From IMG/VR virus record IMGVR_UViG_3300049793_000050, positions 1 through 52,541 of that record: a stretch of DNA of 52,541 nt, one strand, 5' to 3'. The notes under the pieces were generated by a model. That model did not search any database. It saw nothing but the letters and a program-made list of their open reading frames with translations, and was not told where the DNA came from. Shown piece after piece: positions 7,916 through 50,325 of this stretch. The translations under genes and the position numbers were made by a program. How positions within the stretch are numbered: the stretch's first letter is position 1; every line of letters begins with the position of its first letter. This DNA comes from a virus (lineage: Duplodnaviria > Caudoviricetes).

Positions 7916-8134
7916 ATGCTACATCACATCATCATTGACTTCCCGGGAAGTCAAGACGGCAGAATCACAGAGAGTTTCTACGCTGGTACGACGGTTGAAT
8001 TGTCTGACTATTTGGCCGCAATCGTGGTGCCGGCCGGGTGGGCGCGTCCAGTCAGCGCGACCATTGATGTCGAAAGTAAGCCGATGGCGGAACAACCAGC
8101 TGTGACAACCATGAAACGCGGCAAGGCAAAATGA
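7916..8134 (+). CDS. Small head-module protein
   Basis: Coupled ORF before the head-tail adaptor. Confidence 0.6.
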   Translation: MLHHIIIDFPGSQDGRITESFYAGTTVELSDYLAAIVVPAGWARPVSATIDVESKPMAEQPAVTTMKRGKAK

Positions 8135-9102
8135 CTATCGTTGTCTACGCCGGCCCGGCCACGGAGCCGCTGACAGTTGCCGAGGCAATGGCCCATTGCC
8201 GCATCGATTCAAGTAATCAGGAGCCGGCACCTGGCGTCGTCACTGCGGCGCTTGCGTCTCCCGCGGTTGCTGGGAGCGTTAACAACGGCGCGCATCGCTA
8301 TTTGGGTGTATTCCGCAATGCGGACGGACATACGCAGGCTGGTACGATCTCGGCAGCGGTGACGGTGGCGGCGAATGGGGCAAACGGAAAGATCGAACTT
8401 ACCGCATTGCCGGTCGGCGGTTCCCTGATGACATACCTGGACATTTACCGCACGGCAGCGGGCGGATCGACCTACCTATTTTTGGCCGCTCTCACCAACG
8501 GCACGGCTACCTACACAGATAATATCGCCGATGCCAGCTTGGGTGCCGAGGCTCCCGCTACGAACACCACAAGCGACCCGCTGCTTGGCCTGCTGATCGC
8601 TTCCGCGCGCGCGGCTGCCGAGACGGAGCTGCACCGCTCCTTGGTGACGCAGACGCGCGACATGTATCTGGACGAATTCCCGAACGACTGGATTTATGGT
8701 GCAACGTTCGACTGCAAAGGCAGCGCAATATTACTGCCGCCGCTGCAATCTGTGACCAGCATCACCTATGTCGATACGAATGGCACCACGCAGACCCTGG
8801 CGGCCGATCAGTACTTGGTCGATGCCAAGAGCCAGCCCGCTCGGATAACACCCACTTACGGCCTGACATGGCCATCAACGCGGAAGCAGAACAACGCCAT
8901 CACGATTAGGTTTGTTGATGGGTATGGCGCGGCCGCCGCAGTACCACAATGCATAAAGAACTGGATGCTGGTCCGCATCAAAACGCTGTGGGACAACCGA
9001 GAACAAATCGTGGTCGGGCCTACTGGCATGGTGCAGATTCCGCCATCGTTCATCGATTCGCTGCTGGACAGCGAGCGAGTCTACGGCAGGCTGTTTGCAT
9101 GA
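8131..9102 (+). CDS. Head-tail adaptor (gp6/gp15-like) with inserted beta domain
   Basis: PATEPLTVAEAMAHCRID, LIASARAAAE, VPQCIKNWMLVRIKTLWDNRE. Confidence 0.85.
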   Translation: MTIVVYAGPATEPLTVAEAMAHCRIDSSNQEPAPGVVTAALASPAVAGSVNNGAHRYLGVFRNADGHTQAGTISAAVTVAANGANGKIELTALPVGGSLMTYLDIYRTAAGGSTYLFLAALTNGTATYTDNIADASLGAEAPATNTTSDPLLGLLIASARAAAETELHRSLVTQTRDMYLDEFPNDWIYGATFDCKGSAILLPPLQSVTSITYVDTNGTTQTLAADQYLVDAKSQPARITPTYGLTWPSTRKQNNAITIRFVDGYGAAAAVPQCIKNWMLVRIKTLWDNREQIVVGPTGMVQIPPSFIDSLLDSERVYGRLFA

Positions 9103-22666: not shown

Positions 22667-24649
22667 ATGAGCAGCAGCACAACGCTAGTCGATACCGTCG
22701 CCAGTTCGCAGGCGCAAAAAGAAGTGACGTTGAACGCCGCGCTCGATGCGCTGAGTCAATCCATGATCTTCGGCAGGCGTGCGTCAACCACGTCCGGCCT
22801 GACCTGGGGCTATTACGGCGGCCGCTATACAAAGGCAGACGGCACGAACATTGCCGTCGCCAACGGTACGCTGACGCTGACGGCTTCGCTGACCAACTAT
22901 GTCGAGGTGAGCAGCCTGGGTGTAGTCAGCGTCAACACCAGCGCATTCACCGCCGGTAAAACGCCGCTTTATACCGTCGTGGCAGGCGCATCGACTGTCA
23001 CCAGCTACACCGATAACCGCGATGGCACGCAGGGGAATTACCTATCACGCGCCATCGCTGCAGCCTTGGCCGATGGCGACAAGGGCGATATCACCGTATC
23101 AGCATCCGGCGTGACCTGGACGATTGACAACGACGTCGTCACTTACGCCAAGATGCAGAACGTTTCCGCTACCGACAAACTGCTTGGCCGCAGCACCGCC
23201 GGCGCAGGCGACGTCGAGGAAATCACTTGCACCGCAGCTGGTCGTGCGCTGATTGACGACGCGGACGCTACCGCGCAACGTGCGACGCTTGGGCTGGTGA
23301 TTGGCACAAACGTTCAGGCCTATGACGCGGAACTCGCGGCGCTGGCCGGCCTGACATCGGCGGCAAACAAGGGCATCCAGTTCACCGGCAGCGGAACGGC
23401 GGCGACCTACGACCTGACGACAGCCGGCAAAGCCTTGCTCGATGATGCCGACGCCGCAGCGCAGCGCACCACGCTCGGGCTTGCCATCGGTACGAACGTG
23501 CAGGCGTACGATGCAGAACTGGCCGCAATCGCTGGCCTGACCTCGGCAGCAGATAAAGTTCCGTACTTCACCGGCAGCGGCACGGCAGCGCTGCTCACGC
23601 GCGATACCGACGTTAATCTGTCGGCCAATAGCGATACAGCGCTCGCCACGCAGAAAGCCGTCAAGGCCTACGTTGATGCGATAGCCACATCCGGCGCAAC
23701 AGACGTGATGATTTTCAAGGGCGTGATCGACTGCTCTGCGAATCCAAACTATCCCGCTGCTGACGCCGGCAATTTGCACAAAGTCAGCGTGGCCGGCAAG
23801 ATCGGTGGCGCGTCAGGTCCGAACGTTGAGGCTGGCGATACGCTGTACTGCATCACCGATTCCACGGCAAGCGGTAATCAGGCTACGGTCGGGGCGAACT
23901 GGAATATCTCGCAAGTCAACGTCGACGGCGCGGTCACTGGTCCAGCGTCGGCAACGGATAGCCATGTTGCGATGTTCAACGGATCGACCGGCAAGATTAT
24001 CAAGGATTCCGGCCTGACGCTCTCCGGCACTAATACCGGCGATCAAACGGCAGTCTCGGGCAATGCCGGCACCGCCACGGCACTAGCAAGCTCACGCAAC
24101 ATTGACGGTCAGGCGTTCGACGGCACCGCGAATATCACCGTCATCGCGCCGGGAACGCACGCAGCGACCGGCAAAACAACCCCAGTGGATGCCGACGAAA
24201 TGCCGCTTGTGGATAGCGCTGCATCGAACGTGTTGAAAAAGATCACGTGGGCCAACATCAAGGCCACGCTCAAGACCTACTTCGATACGCTCTATGCCAC
24301 CGTTTCGCAGCCGTTCGACCTGATGGCGTTCTATCCCGGTGTGCCGACCACCAGCGCCATCGTCACCCGCGTCCCGGTGGCGCGGGCCATCACATTCCCG
24401 GCGAATTTTTCCGGCAGCTATGCCAAGGCAGCGACGGCAGCGACGGCCAGCACAGCAATTGATGTGCAGAATAATGGCTCATCAATCGGGACCATCACAT
24501 TTGCCGCGGCCGGAACCATCGCTACTTTCACCACCGTAAGCGGTACGTCTAAATCGTTAGTGGCAGGGGATATTTTGTCGATTATCGCCCCAGCAAGTGC
24601 GGATGCAACAATCGCAAATATTGGATTCGTGTTGGCTGGAACGCGATAA
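22667..24649 (+). CDS. Tail fibre protein
   Basis: [10 protein letters not shown] and [10 protein letters not shown]-terminus; Ala/Thr/Gly-rich; internal 62-aa duplication. Confidence 0.85.
23231..23590 (+). repeat. Two-copy 62-codon repeat in the tail fibre
   Basis: [32 protein letters not shown] occurs twice with a 186-nt period. Confidence 0.85.
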
Positions 24650-27377: not shown

Positions 27378-27845
27378 TCACGATACGGAATCGCCTTCTA
27401 AAAGTTCCCCAGCATCCTTGACCATGTGGGCGATGTTATATCGTGGGTTGAATCGGGCAATGTATTCACGCTCAAACAAGTCTAAATTGCAGGCATCAAC
27501 GGGAACAAAGCAAATGCGCTCGAATTCTTTGGCGCTCATGACGTGATCCGACATCCTGCTGAAAAAGTTCGTGGTTTTTCCAACATACACAACGCTGTCG
27601 CCGTCGACTAGAAAGTAAATTCCAACGCCATGCCTTGGAAAAATATTCTTCGCCTTGATCGCGGTAATTGCAAGGAAGGGGCCTTTCGCATGAGGCGGTT
27701 TTTTCATGCTCGCTATGACAACTGGGTTGCCGTGCAAATTGGTCGCGTGCTTTACTCCATAGCGCTTCAACCAGTATAGTTGCGCCTTCGAAGTAACACA
27801 GCCGGTAAATCTGGTTAACTCATTTTTTTGCATGTATGGCGACAC
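27378..27845 (-). CDS. DUF4224 (excisionase-like) domain fused to GIY-YIG nuclease
   Basis: EL..FTG....AQL.WL...G......GNPVV then GIYFL..VYVGKT..R..H..E..NPRYN; GGAGG SD before GTG. Confidence 0.8.
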   Translation of the reverse strand: MSPYMQKNELTRFTGCVTSKAQLYWLKRYGVKHATNLHGNPVVIASMKKPPHAKGPFLAITAIKAKNIFPRHGVGIYFLVDGDSVVYVGKTTNFFSRMSDHVMSAKEFERICFVPVDACNLDLFEREYIARFNPRYNIAHMVKDAGELLEGDSVS

Positions 27846-27873
27846 CGAGAACCTCCGTAATTGGCCATAAAAT

Positions 27874-28117
27874 CTGTGCTATTAACGCTGCCACAATTCA
27901 TACGAAACAATGACTTACCAGCGCAAAATACTATCGGCAATAGCACAATCGAAAGTGTACAACGCATTGAATGCAAAGGGAAAAGAACAGAGTAGAAAGT
28001 CAGCCTTCTAAGCTGAGGGTCACAGGTTCGATTCCTGTTGGGCAGACCAGCCCACAGGGCTTTTCGCAGGAGTAGACACTAACCACTGTGCTATAAAATT
28101 CAGGTTGCGCTATTCAA
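27874..28117. other. attP region with candidate arm-type repeats and an IHF-like site
   Basis: TGTGCTAT at 27875 and 28087, inverted copy at 27939-27947, degenerate GCGCTATT at 28107; AAACAATGACTTA at 27905-27917. Confidence 0.65.
28000..28049 (+). other. attP core: 3' half of tRNA-Arg(UCU)
   Basis: TCAGC-CTTCTAA-GCTGA anticodon arm, ACAGG-TTCGATT-CCTGT T arm, ends ACCA; no 5' half; close to the integrase. Confidence 0.88.
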
Positions 28118-28597
28118 TTCCTTTTTTCCTCCGCGGTAGATGTTAAATTCAGGCTTCAGGCTGCCAATGTAAATCTGTTCTAGGCGATCCATTTCAACAC
28201 CGGCTGCCGGTATCATATGCGTCGAGCCGAACGGGATCTCATTATTTTTGACGTGCGTGGCAATCCGCTCGGAAATATTGGCCGACCTTCCGACGTAGAC
28301 GATTTTTCCTTCGTTAATAAGAAAGTAGACACCCGATCGCGGCATCGCGGCCGACATCGATAGGATATCTGGCGCCGCCAGCAGCTTGCTATTTGGAATG
28401 CCTTCGGAGGCTTCCGTGCGCGTCACCATATACGCAAACGCTTCAAGCGCCTCTTCGAATGTCGCGCCCAGCCTGAACTTTTTCTTATGGTCCCACCACG
28501 GCTCAGTGCCCGGCGGAACCTGATAGTAGTAAGCTCCATGCATGCGCTGCCATCTGTTGGGCAGGCCTTCGTTTTCTGGATTTCTTGGTCTTGGCAT
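28100..28597 (-). CDS. Integrase N-terminal (arm-binding) domain fused to GIY-YIG nuclease
   Basis: First 55 aa are 36/55 identical to the integrase N-terminus; GVYFL..VYVGRS..R..H..E..PEFN. Confidence 0.85.
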   Translation of the reverse strand: MPRPRNPENEGLPNRWQRMHGAYYYQVPPGTEPWWDHKKKFRLGATFEEALEAFAYMVTRTEASEGIPNSKLLAAPDILSMSAAMPRSGVYFLINEGKIVYVGRSANISERIATHVKNNEIPFGSTHMIPAAGVEMDRLEQIYIGSLKPEFNIYRGGKKELNSAT

Positions 28598-28613
28598 GCT
28601 ACTCCTTGGGCTA

Positions 28614-29678
28614 TTAAAACTTTTGTTTCAGTGGCTTTACGTGCTCCGGTTTCCGTCGATAAATCCTTTTTGTGACTGCGCTGTCAGCATGCGAAAGCAG
28701 TGACCGCGCATGTTCCAGGCTGTCCGCATCGCTCGCACACTTCGCCCGTAAATCATGCTCGGTGAATCGCTTGGTGACTTTCGTTTCCTTCAATACGCGG
28801 TCCATGAATCGCTGCCACATTGAATCCCATCCGTCTGTCGTTTCCTTCGTATCGTGAATGTAGCAAGTTCCTTTGCGCGTACAAAACAACCACGGCGCGA
28901 TATGGACCGGGCGACTCGCAAGAGCCGATTCGACCGCTGCACGCAAATCCGGTGTCCATTCGTAGATCGTAGTTTTGCCAGTGGAGCCGGTCGTCTTGTG
29001 GCGCTGAACCCGAATTCCTTGCTCTGTAAAATCTTTCGCCGGCTCAAGCCGCAACATATCGCCGCGGGAAATTCCGGTTAGCAGTTTCAATCGAATATAG
29101 TTTTGCAGCATGACCACACTGCCTTTCTTTTGTTTGCTCCCAAGCGCCAGGCATTCAATGATTTCCCAATCCTCCACATACCGATCGCGCGGACCTGGCC
29201 CCTCCATCACGATCTGGCCCTTGAACGGGTGCCGGTCGATATATCCCCATTCAACCGCCTTCGTGAAAACATGCGAAAACAGTTTTACCTCTTTCATGGC
29301 TGGAATGCGCATCTTTGCCTTATCGACATAAATGTAAAGATGCTGCGGGCGTATTGAGGAAAGCGGCATTGCGCCGAACGGCTTGCGCAGGCGAGCAACG
29401 GCACGCTGATTCTCAACCTGCGTGCGCACGGCCTTTGTTGGAACCACCTCAAGCGCATAGCGGTCCAGTAATGCGCCGATGGTCTTGGCGCCGTCGATTG
29501 ACTCAAGACGCGCCGCCCATGCCCTGTAAGCTTCGGGTAGTGTCTTGCCAAGCCTGAATGTTTTCTTTCCGTCCCAAAGCGCCTCAAGGCCTTGCGGAAC
29601 TTGGTAGTAATACGCGCCATGGGTTTTCTTCCACCGAAGTGGTAGCCCCATGTTCTCCGCATTGCGCTTCCTAGGCAT
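28614..29678 (-). CDS. int: Tyrosine integrase
   Basis: HKT, HDLR, LLSH, RIY catalytic motifs; next to tRNA-derived attP. Confidence 0.92.
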   Translation of the reverse strand: MPRKRNAENMGLPLRWKKTHGAYYYQVPQGLEALWDGKKTFRLGKTLPEAYRAWAARLESIDGAKTIGALLDRYALEVVPTKAVRTQVENQRAVARLRKPFGAMPLSSIRPQHLYIYVDKAKMRIPAMKEVKLFSHVFTKAVEWGYIDRHPFKGQIVMEGPGPRDRYVEDWEIIECLALGSKQKKGSVVMLQNYIRLKLLTGISRGDMLRLEPAKDFTEQGIRVQRHKTTGSTGKTTIYEWTPDLRAAVESALASRPVHIAPWLFCTRKGTCYIHDTKETTDGWDSMWQRFMDRVLKETKVTKRFTEHDLRAKCASDADSLEHARSLLSHADSAVTKRIYRRKPEHVKPLKQKF

Positions 29679-29892
29679 TCATTGCTTCCCAATTTGGCTC
29701 GGCAGGTTTGGACGATTTTACGCCTTCCGTGTCTCCGAATTCCTTTTTGACATGCGATCGCAAGATAGCAATGCTGCCATCGGCGCGCACTTTGTGCTGA
29801 ATGCCGAGGAAGTTCAACACAGCGACTTGAGCCCTGCGGTGCGTTCTGTGCGTCAGATCCTTGATTTCAATCGGCTCTAAAAACATACCCAT
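29671..29892 (-). CDS. xis: Excisionase (DUF4224-like)
   Basis: FL...EIKDLT....AQ...L..LGI.H..RADG; overlaps int start. Confidence 0.75.
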   Translation of the reverse strand: MGMFLEPIEIKDLTHRTHRRAQVAVLNFLGIQHKVRADGSIAILRSHVKKEFGDTEGVKSSKPAEPNWEAMNA

Positions 29893-29937
29893 GACTTCAC
29901 CCTCCAAACTTCCAGCGTTCGGTTGCGCTCAAATAAC

Positions 29938-32605: not shown

Positions 32606-32775
32606 TTCGTGCCTTTTAGTATTGCGATCAGTCGCGTAAAGAAACTTGGACGACGCGCTTTTGTCGTCGGACGCTCTGGCGGTTGCGGCGCAGATGATTG
32701 GATGAGCGCGGCGCGCATTGCGCTTTCATGATCAAATCCTGCGTCACGATACTTCTGATAAGTGCTTTCGATCAT
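32602..32775 (-). CDS. Small hypothetical protein (57 aa, not in ORF track)
   Basis: MIESTYQKYRDAGFDHESAMRAAL..; ATGA overlaps at both ends. Confidence 0.55.
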   Translation of the reverse strand: MIESTYQKYRDAGFDHESAMRAALIQSSAPQPPERPTTKARRPSFFTRLIAILKGTK

Positions 32776-33527
32776 GCCGCAATCTCCTTTTCTGCCATCT
32801 CACAAAATATCCCGCACTGGACTTGCGGCTCAGTCTTGAAGTCGCCATCCCCAGGCTGCAGTTCATCCAGATAAATCCGAATCTCTTTCCGCTTAAGTAG
32901 TTTCACGCCCTTGGATCGCGAATACTCAGCCATCCGAGTGAACTCAGCCGGAAAATCGATGCGGATTTTGTTCCAGTAACCCATGCCAGCCTTGACGCAC
33001 CCAATACAGTTGTTGTGCTCATAACCCAAGTCGTACATCGCTGGGAGCGCAATCCCGGCGCGCATCACGATAGCCTTGCAATCTTCTTTGGTAAGTCCGC
33101 GATCAATAAGAATTGCCATGCTCCGGCGTTCGTTGTTCGCATCAATCCAATCGTCGTGCCGATCCTGCTCTTCGGCGGTATATCCGATCACATCGACGTC
33201 GCCATATCGCCAAAATTCAGCGGCAACCTCTTTTTTGAGTGTGCGCGTGCATACCGCGCCATAGACGCCCGCGATGTATTTCTCGCCCTCGAACGCCTCG
33301 TAAATATCTCCGTGGTATTTTTCGTTCTGCACAACCAATATAGGCACGCCAAACCATGCCTCGCATTCCTTCAGGAAGCGCGCATTGTCTGGATGCTCTT
33401 GCTTGACGTACTCATTCAGGACTATCAATGGCAACTGGGTGCCGCGCGCATTTTCTTCGATGGCGAGCTTGGCCGCCACTGCAGACGCAGCCCCGCAAGA
33501 AAAGTGACACACAATTCGATTTCTCAT
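32772..33527 (-). CDS. PAPS-reductase-like (PP-loop) protein
   Basis: FSCGAASA, EHPDN, CT..LK, HNNC.GCVK, CGIFC. Confidence 0.8.
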   Translation of the reverse strand: MRNRIVCHFSCGAASAVAAKLAIEENARGTQLPLIVLNEYVKQEHPDNARFLKECEAWFGVPILVVQNEKYHGDIYEAFEGEKYIAGVYGAVCTRTLKKEVAAEFWRYGDVDVIGYTAEEQDRHDDWIDANNERRSMAILIDRGLTKEDCKAIVMRAGIALPAMYDLGYEHNNCIGCVKAGMGYWNKIRIDFPAEFTRMAEYSRSKGVKLLKRKEIRIYLDELQPGDGDFKTEPQVQCGIFCEMAEKEIAA

Positions 33528-33595
33528 ATCGCTCTCAATAAAGTGGAGCCACAGCATCGCCAATGGCAGACTTGTCGCTGCGGCCCCGTGAATCA

Positions 33596-33970
33596 TTAGG
33601 CGGACTTCATCGACGGCAGCGGTGCCAAGACTTGATCGCCCTCGTTGAGATTCTGGAAATTGCCGCGCACCGTCCGCACTACCGTTTCCCAATGATTGCA
33701 GCGCATGTTCGATTGCAAAATTTCAGTGCGTGGCAACTTGCTCACATCGACCAGTGACATGACTTCACCAAAGTAGATCATGCCGCTGCGCTCCTTGATC
33801 GGCCCTGTCAACGTTTCTCCGTCGATCACGACTTCCGATTGTGAGTAGAACCGGTAGCCATACGCGCCCTTTGGAATATCTGTAATCGGCGACCTGTCGG
33901 CAACTTCGCGCGTGCTGGTCTCCGATACGAACGAGCCGGGATAGAAAAATTCAACGTAGGTCTTATTCAT
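33596..33970 (-). CDS. Hypothetical protein
   Basis: YVEFFYPGSFVSE ORF in the leftward operon. Confidence 0.7.
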   Translation of the reverse strand: MNKTYVEFFYPGSFVSETSTREVADRSPITDIPKGAYGYRFYSQSEVVIDGETLTGPIKERSGMIYFGEVMSLVDVSKLPRTEILQSNMRCNHWETVVRTVRGNFQNLNEGDQVLAPLPSMKSA

Positions 33971-50249: not shown

Positions 50250-50325
50250 GCCGATTTAGCTCATCTGGTAGAGCGCCGGTTTTGTAGTCCGGATGTGATG
50301 GGTTCGAGTCCTGTAGTCGGCACCA
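50250..50325 (+). tRNA. tRNA-Thr(UGU)
   Basis: 76-nt cloverleaf GCCGATT..AGTCGGC-ACCA, D arm GCTC/GAGC, anticodon TGT, TTCGAGT loop. Confidence 0.9.

Follow-up and report, generated by a model that had tools for sequence, protein, structure and literature searches.

GIY-YIG endonucleases of the I-TevI and Seg type, which are encoded by T-even phages and patchily distributed among related genomes, link their catalytic domain to a separate sequence-specific DNA-binding module. We describe here two phage genes that share this linkage and this distribution, in which a GIY-YIG domain follows a DNA-recognition domain of the integrase or the excisionase type. They lie on either side of the probable phage attachment site (attP) in IMG/VR virus record IMGVR_UViG_3300049793_000050 (Caudoviricetes), a linear sequence of 52,541 bp with a CheckV value of 73%. 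This whole stretch is referred to below as the window, and the two genes as IntN::GIY and DUF4224::GIY after their N-terminal domains. The guide domains of I-TevI and Seg proteins are NUMOD or zinc-finger/helix-turn-helix (HTH) domains, whereas those of the window proteins are of the integrase-arm and excisionase types. The window genes also differ in sitting in an integration module at attP, and homing is for them a proposal only. In fold, the window fusion matches the I-TevI catalytic domain (1ln0). NCBIfam models gave partial, domain-level matches only, including one to grpIintron_endo of 28 bits, under the cut-off.

HNH-AP2 homing endonucleases combine a nuclease with a DNA-binding domain of the integrase N-domain superfamily, as part of PMC4117751 describes. 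The window genes show the same kind of joining, with a GIY-YIG nuclease rather than an HNH nuclease. To our knowledge, HNH-AP2 proteins have not been reported to be tied to att sites, or to a resident integrase whose N-domain is of their own class. The recognition domains of the window proteins and their analogues come from the same families as the arm domain of lambda Int and the Xis factors (PF09003 in loci L045 and L192; PF13986 in the window, L041 and L145), but the window fusion carries a nuclease in place of the recombinase catalytic domain. SNIPE is presented in the available part of PMC13190303 as a membrane-anchored defence nuclease with an N-terminal targeting part and a C-terminal GIY-YIG domain that acts in phage conflict. 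Its targeting is ascribed there to membrane location and DUF4041 instead of sequence-specific DNA binding, and att sites play no part in it. In the available main text of a phylogenomic survey of GIY-YIG proteins (PMC1564403), integrase, excisionase and AP2 do not appear. Our literature search on GIY-YIG fusions to integrase or excisionase domains, with supplementary files outside its scope, returned no description of such proteins. This agrees with a preliminary description of the locus, made from the sequence alone, which had not recognised the system as one already described.

We are confident that the window genes encode conserved modular GIY-YIG endonucleases whose predicted guide domains come from integrase and excisionase families and which reside in integration modules. 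Both proteins are probably active as endonucleases. The minus-strand gene order is xis, int, the 165-aa gene, a gap of 254 bp and the 155-aa gene; beyond them, plus-strand genes for the tail fibre, holin, endolysin and Rz spanin extend up to 27368. The two minus-strand open reading frames (ORFs) thus flank attP in the orientation of xis and int, as first described. The genes and domains of the module are listed below, with matches given by expect value (E).

29671 to 29907, minus strand: xis, encoding a 78-aa excisionase-type protein (PF13986, DUF4224, E 2.9e-9; PHROG excisionase families, E about 1e-6)
28614 to 29678, minus strand: int, encoding a 354-aa tyrosine integrase with an N-terminal arm-type domain (phrog_216 integrase, 9e-7)
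28100 to 28597, minus strand: IntN::GIY-YIG fusion gene, 165 aa, starting 17 nt past the int stop
28418 to 28597, minus strand: integrase-arm-like N-domain of the 165-aa protein, approximately residues 1-60, three strands and a helix
28133 to 28345, minus strand: GIY-YIG domain of the 165-aa protein, approximately residues 85-155, with Y91, Y101, R111, H115, E140 and N152
27846 to 28099, no strand: attP region, the 254-bp gap separating the two fusion genes, with a guanine-plus-cytosine (GC) fraction of 0.449
27378 to 27845, minus strand: DUF4224::GIY-YIG fusion gene, 155 aa from a GTG at 27845 (the database form begins four codons later)
27708 to 27827, minus strand: DUF4224 (excisionase-type) domain of the 155-aa protein, residues 7-46 (PF13986, E 5.2e-7, 30 bits against a cut-off of 22)
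27426 to 27641, minus strand: GIY-YIG domain of the 155-aa protein, approximately residues 69-140

The window Int scores 18.8 bits against PF00589, under the model cut-off, and many of its homologues (58-68% identity) also have a DUF4224 xis ahead of them. In the window, the usual Xis place just upstream of int is taken by the ordinary xis at 29671-29907. The DUF4224 fusion is not a small stand-alone gene upstream of int: it is 155 aa long, lies across attP and carries a nuclease.

The N-terminal part of the 165-aa protein closely resembles that of the resident integrase. BLASTP aligned the protein with Int residues 1-63 at 39 identical positions of 66 (E 1e-22). The first 55 residues align without a gap and 36 are identical, which bears out the Int-like start given in the preliminary description. 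The N-termini of many Int homologues are 55-73% identical to the same domain. Neither the window fusion nor the window Int matches PF09003 at E <= 1; the analogous fusions in L045 (6.7e-11) and L192 (2.1e-11) do match this model. The AlphaFold2 model of the 165-aa protein has a predicted local distance difference test (pLDDT) score of 87 and places strands at residues 16-19, 22-26 and 40-44 and a helix at 47-59 in the N-domain. When the whole model was searched with Foldseek, the UvrC GIY-YIG domain (1yd6) came top with an E of 1.9e-4, and the I-TevI domain was also listed. The lambda Int N-domain (1kjk) ranked 12th, with a weak E of 0.48 and a template modelling (TM) score by target of 0.45. 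The first row of an ESM Atlas structure search was an integrase cluster aligned to residues 1-77. In the C-terminal half, PF01541 (GIY-YIG) was matched at 24.8 bits against a cut-off of 22.6.

The 155-aa protein matches an excisionase family in PHROG (phrog_4764, E 1.6e-7), and both it and the resident Xis match PF13986. The excisionase-like start reported earlier is therefore upheld at the level of the domain family, but the resemblance to the resident Xis is weak and not gap-free: 14 of 65 positions are identical (E 0.002), with a 5-residue gap after approximately residue 47. The model of this protein has a pLDDT of 77, its GIY-YIG domain reaches 22.9 bits for PF01541 against the same cut-off, and 1yd6 is again the top Foldseek match (E 4.3e-5). 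Over both models, the UvrC GIY-YIG matches have TM scores by target of 0.62-0.69, and PDB profile matches of both GIY domains are to UvrC and T4 EndoII. The two domains are 34% identical to one another (24/71, E 1e-12). Each has the complete Y-Y-R-H-E-N set, as had been noted at the outset, and Pfam and structure prediction support the domain assignment in both proteins. The six catalytic residues are invariant in 12 of 12 aligned GIY domains and in all 150 of the best database representatives. PADLOC gave matches of 40-60 residues only, to the GIY part of the PDC-S14 and UzuA models (277-320 positions; E 1e-5 to 1e-3), and no full-length match of the window fusions to a PADLOC defence protein model.

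The gap between the two genes holds a tRNA-like fragment, which is the probable attP core, and a repeated 8-mer. Window positions 28001-28049 (49 nt) are 89.8% identical to tRNA-Arg genes in seven Proteus phage records. The Rfam tRNA model matches 27987-28038 at 25.9 bits (E 0.024), under the gathering score of 29. In a soil metagenome run from which the window may itself derive, other contigs share only 27992-28052 with the window and then go on with tRNA-like letters; no integrated att junction was seen in this one run, which showed the attP form and unrelated tRNA-like contigs only. The 8-mer TGTGCTAT has three exact copies in the window, none of them outside the 254-bp gap. Two lie left of the core in mutually inverted orientation and one lies to its right, and we consider them candidate arm-type sites. 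The features in and around the gap are as follows.

28602 to 28607, minus strand: Shine-Dalgarno-like AAGGAG, 4 nt ahead of the IntN::GIY ATG, read from sequence
28087 to 28094, plus strand: candidate arm-type site, right arm, 5 nt off the IntN::GIY stop codon
27987 to 28049, plus strand: tRNA-Arg(UCU)-like 3' fragment, probable attP core, from tRNA-Arg identity and the Rfam tRNA match
27940 to 27947, minus strand: candidate arm-type site, left arm, inverted, from the repeat search
27875 to 27882, plus strand: candidate arm-type site, left arm, from the repeat search
27852 to 27856, minus strand: Shine-Dalgarno-like GGAGG, 6 nt ahead of the DUF4224::GIY GTG, read from sequence

We identified 17 full-length relatives of IntN::GIY, all metagenomic, with 41-61% identity, and five of DUF4224::GIY, with 39-50% identity. 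Each family has invariant columns in both halves. Degeneration in relatives, which the preliminary description had considered, was not seen: the relatives are full-length, the catalytic set is invariant in the aligned domains, and no frameshifts or stops are present in the sequences examined. A tree was built from 18 fusion N-domains and 67 unique Int N-domains, the latter collapsed from 86 Int N-termini. It omits P0003 (near-identical to P0002), the 113-aa fragment P0017 and the integrase fragments P0020-P0023. All fusions form one clade with a support of 0.927. By identity to the window fusion N-domain, the window Int is only the 28th of 84. The DNA of the 5' ends of the window int and fusion genes differs throughout; with the fusion N-domains forming a clade of their own, a recent local duplication of the int 5' end was rejected. 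The arm domain had at first been taken for a duplicate of the resident one, and that claim is not supported. Because the fusions form their own clade and the window Int ranks so low, we conclude that the IntN fusion of the window had a single, ancient origin and is no fresh copy of the neighbouring int.

At locus L002, a run of 17 identical residues is common to the strand regions of the fusion and its resident Int, although many third codon positions differ in the DNA. This single case hints at selection for the same DNA-contact surface. A metagenome scan with the IntN::GIY alignment picked up the N-domain pattern and returned integrases only, and a genome scan with DUF4224::GIY returned one locus. 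The hypothetical protein P0022 (153 aa, Telluria antibiotica) has an excisionase-type start that runs into an integrase N-terminus and is probably a miscalled ORF across xis and int.

The window proteins belong to a very large GIY-YIG subfamily. At E <= 0.001, a profile of the GIY domain searched against 1.84 billion entries matched 22,600 representative clusters, of which 7,653 remain at E <= 1e-10. We surveyed domain partners in the best 150 representatives, 101 of which have an N-terminal extension of at least 60 residues. The Pfam partners among the 150 are HTH_17 (8), Arm-DNA-bind_1 (7), DUF4224 (3), Terminase_5 (1) and HTH_23 (1), and our own sequence patterns picked out 9 AP2-like and 10 lambda-like integrase N-domains. 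Fusions in viral contigs confirmed by Pfam include Arm-DNA-bind_1::GIY (L045, L192), DUF4224::GIY (L041) and HTH_17::GIY (L056).

The fusions with integrase-type N-domains tend to lie near integrase genes. With integrases detected by a profile built from sequences of this analysis, and N-domain classes assigned by patterns also made here, an integrase ORF is found within 2.5 kb of 4 of 5 lambda-type fusions and 7 of 8 AP2-like fusions (11/13 together). The same is true of 14 of 69 proteins with other N-domains and of none of the 12 GIY proteins with almost no N-terminal extension. In the sole lambda-type exception (L039), Int is at the opposite end of the provirus. PF00589 is present in 8 of 10 records checked. 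The N-domain class of each fusion is that of the resident Int, and the position of the fusion relative to int varies: it may be downstream, immediately upstream, divergent, or convergent across attP. The recurrence of such fusions, for which the preliminary description had proposed a search, is borne out for several integrase N-domain classes and two excisionase-type domains. Pairing is not: two GIY genes occur in 2 of 11 records, and only the window combines IntN::GIY with DUF4224::GIY.

Further members of the subfamily were seen in the same survey. A large group of approximately 240 aa (L160-L182, L202, L219) and a second of approximately 176 aa (L169, L175, L183, L189 and others) each have a conserved N-terminal part of unknown family, followed in one of the two groups by a coiled-coil-like stretch. 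A few members of these groups lie directly upstream of an integrase (L170, L199, L208). Stand-alone GIY proteins of 119-121 aa are encoded in Vibrio phage 234P9 (L063, 2938-3297) and Pseudoalteromonas phage Pq0 (L064, 2974-3339), where their genes sit among exonuclease and SSB genes, outside integration modules.

One pair of related phage loci allows the integrase and the nuclease to be compared side by side. The flanking DNA of L047 and L048 is 84-94% identical, with the int/fusion region at 4474-6210 in L047 and 4481-6210 in L048, and the stretch downstream of int is non-homologous. Between the two loci, the Int N-domain is 56% identical (25/45) and the remainder of Int 92% (273/297). The fusion shows the same pattern, with 20 of 45 identical residues in the N-domain, 15 of 40 in the linker and 72 of 75 in the GIY domain. 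Both guide domains have changed and both catalytic parts have been kept, which in this one pair fits a link between nuclease targeting and arm specificity. The fusion N-domains are slightly nearer to the Int of the other phage than to their own (23 versus 18 and 25 versus 20 of 45 positions). An inversion switch that swaps the N-domains of the divergent int and fusion genes was considered and rejected, as no inverted repeats were found and the loci are collinear.

We compared 118 loci of the Int family (the window, L002-L038 and L065-L144), with flanks of 4-6 kb examined on each side. Only the window and L002 have a GIY ORF in the examined stretch. L002 is a 69.9-kb contig with terminal repeats, in which a tRNA-like core separates IntN::GIY from int and the two genes are convergent. 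An arm-like 9-mer flanks this core in three full copies and a shorter fourth, and one copy overlaps the IntN::GIY stop codon. L002 also encodes a GIY-YIG protein of a third kind (8008-8634, minus strand; 208 aa), which has a 107-residue N-terminal part without a Pfam match; its gene overlaps the xis start and belongs to the same operon as int.

Several relatives lack the gene at the equivalent place. In L228, the lysis cassette is related to that of the window (endolysin 80% identical), Int is 58% identical and Xis is present; both fusion genes are absent and the end of int is approximately 75 bp from a tRNA-like core. In L012, a tRNA lies 85 bp past int and the fusion gene is absent, as it is in L105. 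Because only 2 of the 118 Int-family loci have a GIY ORF and L228 and L012 are without the gene, the two fusion genes look like insertions at the outer edges of attP. L145, a contig from a Paucimonas metagenome-assembled genome that encodes the nearest relative of the window DUF4224::GIY, carries int, a full tRNA and DUF4224::GIY, then opposite-strand phage genes (methylase-like, spanin, endolysin, holin and tail fibre). The window has the same gene layout with another type of integrase, and the examined stretch of L145 showed no DUF4224 ORF apart from the fusion. Phage genes lie on either side of the full-length tRNA (1714-1787, 66.6 bits), which separates int from DUF4224::GIY; either a whole tRNA belongs to the attP of this phage or two states are joined in the contig.

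We tentatively favour, at slightly under an even chance, a reading of the window fusions as accessory endonucleases aimed at att arms, of the homing or the competition type. This reading fits best because the genes are patchily distributed, fit snugly at the edges of attP, belong to an old separate lineage and show repeated domain shuffling. The short C-terminal GIY-YIG domain would cut, tethered by a linker of approximately 25 residues to an N-terminal targeting domain from the toolkit of site-specific recombination: a paralogue of the Int arm domain in one protein and a DUF4224 excisionase-type domain in the other. In att DNA, the sites bound by the targeting domains would be of the arm type or the Xis type, with the nuclease nicking or cutting alongside. 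The genes would be accessory and horizontally mobile and would serve in conflicts that related temperate phages have with each other: either they would be homing-type elements and cut att regions without the insertion, or they would be weapons against rivals of the same arm specificity. The carrier would be spared if the gene itself fills the DNA beside the bound arm site.

A more specific form of this proposal is conceivable but rather unlikely. Nucleases of the integration module, guided by copies of arm-binding and excisionase domains, would cut the attachment regions or excised circles of rivals whose arm specificity is, or was until recently, the same. The guides would then diversify in step with arm sites and with the arm domains of Int, of which L047 and L048 may give a hint. 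Paired nucleases may need both arms side by side, which would tell attP from the separated attL and attR of a resident prophage.

Several observations weigh against nucleases aimed at att arms. The sparing of the carrier is an assumption, and the carrier retains its own arm sites. The resident Int is the best N-domain match of the fusion in only 8 of approximately 17 pairs. Identity between the DUF4224 part and the resident Xis is only 22%, and L145 pairs DUF4224::GIY with another integrase type. In other phages, the fusion is upstream of or divergent from int, and its adjacency to attP would be an assumption there; no tRNA-like core was found in L047. The comparison with I-TevI and Seg is imperfect in that the domain order is opposite, the DNA-binding part being N-terminal in the window fusions, and Pfam scans of the window fusions and their analogues found no NUMOD-type domains. 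No near-identical genome pair with and without the gene, which would mark an insertion boundary or target site, was found.

The fusions could instead be accessory recombination factors that join or replace parts of the intasome, with a nick or cut that steers the phage's own integration or excision. They may set directionality, commit the element after excision or clear unwanted att products, and the Xis-type fusion may itself be the directionality factor in some phages. Many IntN::GIY genes do lie 0-22 bp upstream of int on the same strand, in the usual place of xis (L153, L156, L159, L162, L197). In L041, DUF4224::GIY is 142 bp upstream of int, and its N-terminal part aligns with nearly the whole of the window Xis (E 3e-8). 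The examined stretch of L041 gave no match to a further Xis-like ORF. The four window genes are co-oriented, and transcription across attP would tie DUF4224::GIY to int only in the attP state. Set against this, most related modules lack the genes and presumably recombine all the same, and the window has an ordinary xis as well. We also know of no tyrosine-recombinase system that needs a nuclease. On balance we regard such a role as unlikely.

Prophage defence of the moron type is, in our judgement, quite unlikely as an account of the window genes. It would make the GIY-YIG domain a general warhead, the N-domain one of many anchors and the att position a spot for cargo. The size of the subfamily and its many unrelated N-domains (the 69 'other') suit this idea, as do the weak, domain-only matches to PDC-S14 and UzuA (E approximately 1e-5) and the lower GC of DUF4224::GIY (0.472, against 0.558 for the window). 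SNIPE, from the part of PMC13190303 cited above, offers a precedent in defence for an N-terminal targeting part with a C-terminal GIY-YIG domain. However, every Pfam partner domain seen more than once is of a recombination-module type, the IntN-type fusions accompany int genes whose N-domain is of the same class, and L047 and L048 differ from each other jointly in the targeting domains of Int and of the fusion.

An obligate two-nuclease mimic of the intasome, in which both proteins bind neighbouring sites and each nicks one strand so that only intact attP is cut, is improbable. Both fusions flank one attP in the window, and a complex of the two proteins is weakly predicted, with a median score of 0.51 against 0.00 for the best of three controls; contact agreement across runs is at least 64% and partner pLDDT at least 66. 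In the calibration of this score, 58 of 80 solved complexes attained the mark, as did 2 of 110 mismatched pairs; only 7 of the 80, together with both mismatches, did so with a score of 0.60 or less. The weak score may merely reflect the likeness of paralogous GIY domains. In the one other record with two GIY genes (L002), the second has a different N-domain with no Pfam match, and a single fusion occurs alone in L145 and nine other records.

Relics of module exchange, with an old int 5' end and an old xis joined in frame to a nuclease gene and N-domains without function, are very improbable even though integration modules are mosaic and N-domain regions are replacement hot spots. Full-length relatives exist for both fusions (17 and 5), and each half of these proteins has invariant residues. 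The fusion N-domains form a single clade, and independent fusions involve no fewer than three classes of integrase N-domain as well as two excisionase-type domains. In addition, the N-domain folds confidently in the model, and good ribosome-binding sites lie ahead of both genes.

If nucleases aimed at att arms are the correct reading, recombination systems would repeatedly have lent their DNA-recognition parts to nucleases directed at attachment sites, adding a previously undescribed layer of conflict or control where temperate phages enter and leave chromosomes. This would help to account for the faster change of attP arms, and of the arm-binding domains of integrases, compared with the remainder of the module. 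The fusions would also form a natural set of small, modular, sequence-directed nickases or cutters whose cognate sites could be read from the adjoining att region.

Some further features of the window were recorded. A scan for promoters and terminators was uninformative, with 2 promoter-like matches against 3.0 expected and 8 terminator-like matches against 5.3 expected. The Rz spanin, used as a query, turned up no relatives. A tRNA-Thr gene (anticodon TGT) is present within the phage record at 50250-50325, and the early region includes a PAPS-reductase-like gene at 32772-33692 on the minus strand (phrog_424, E 3e-42). The 660-aa tail fibre protein encoded at 22667-24649 is matched over two stretches by PHROG tail fibre families, and an internal repeat of approximately 45 residues is visible in its translation.

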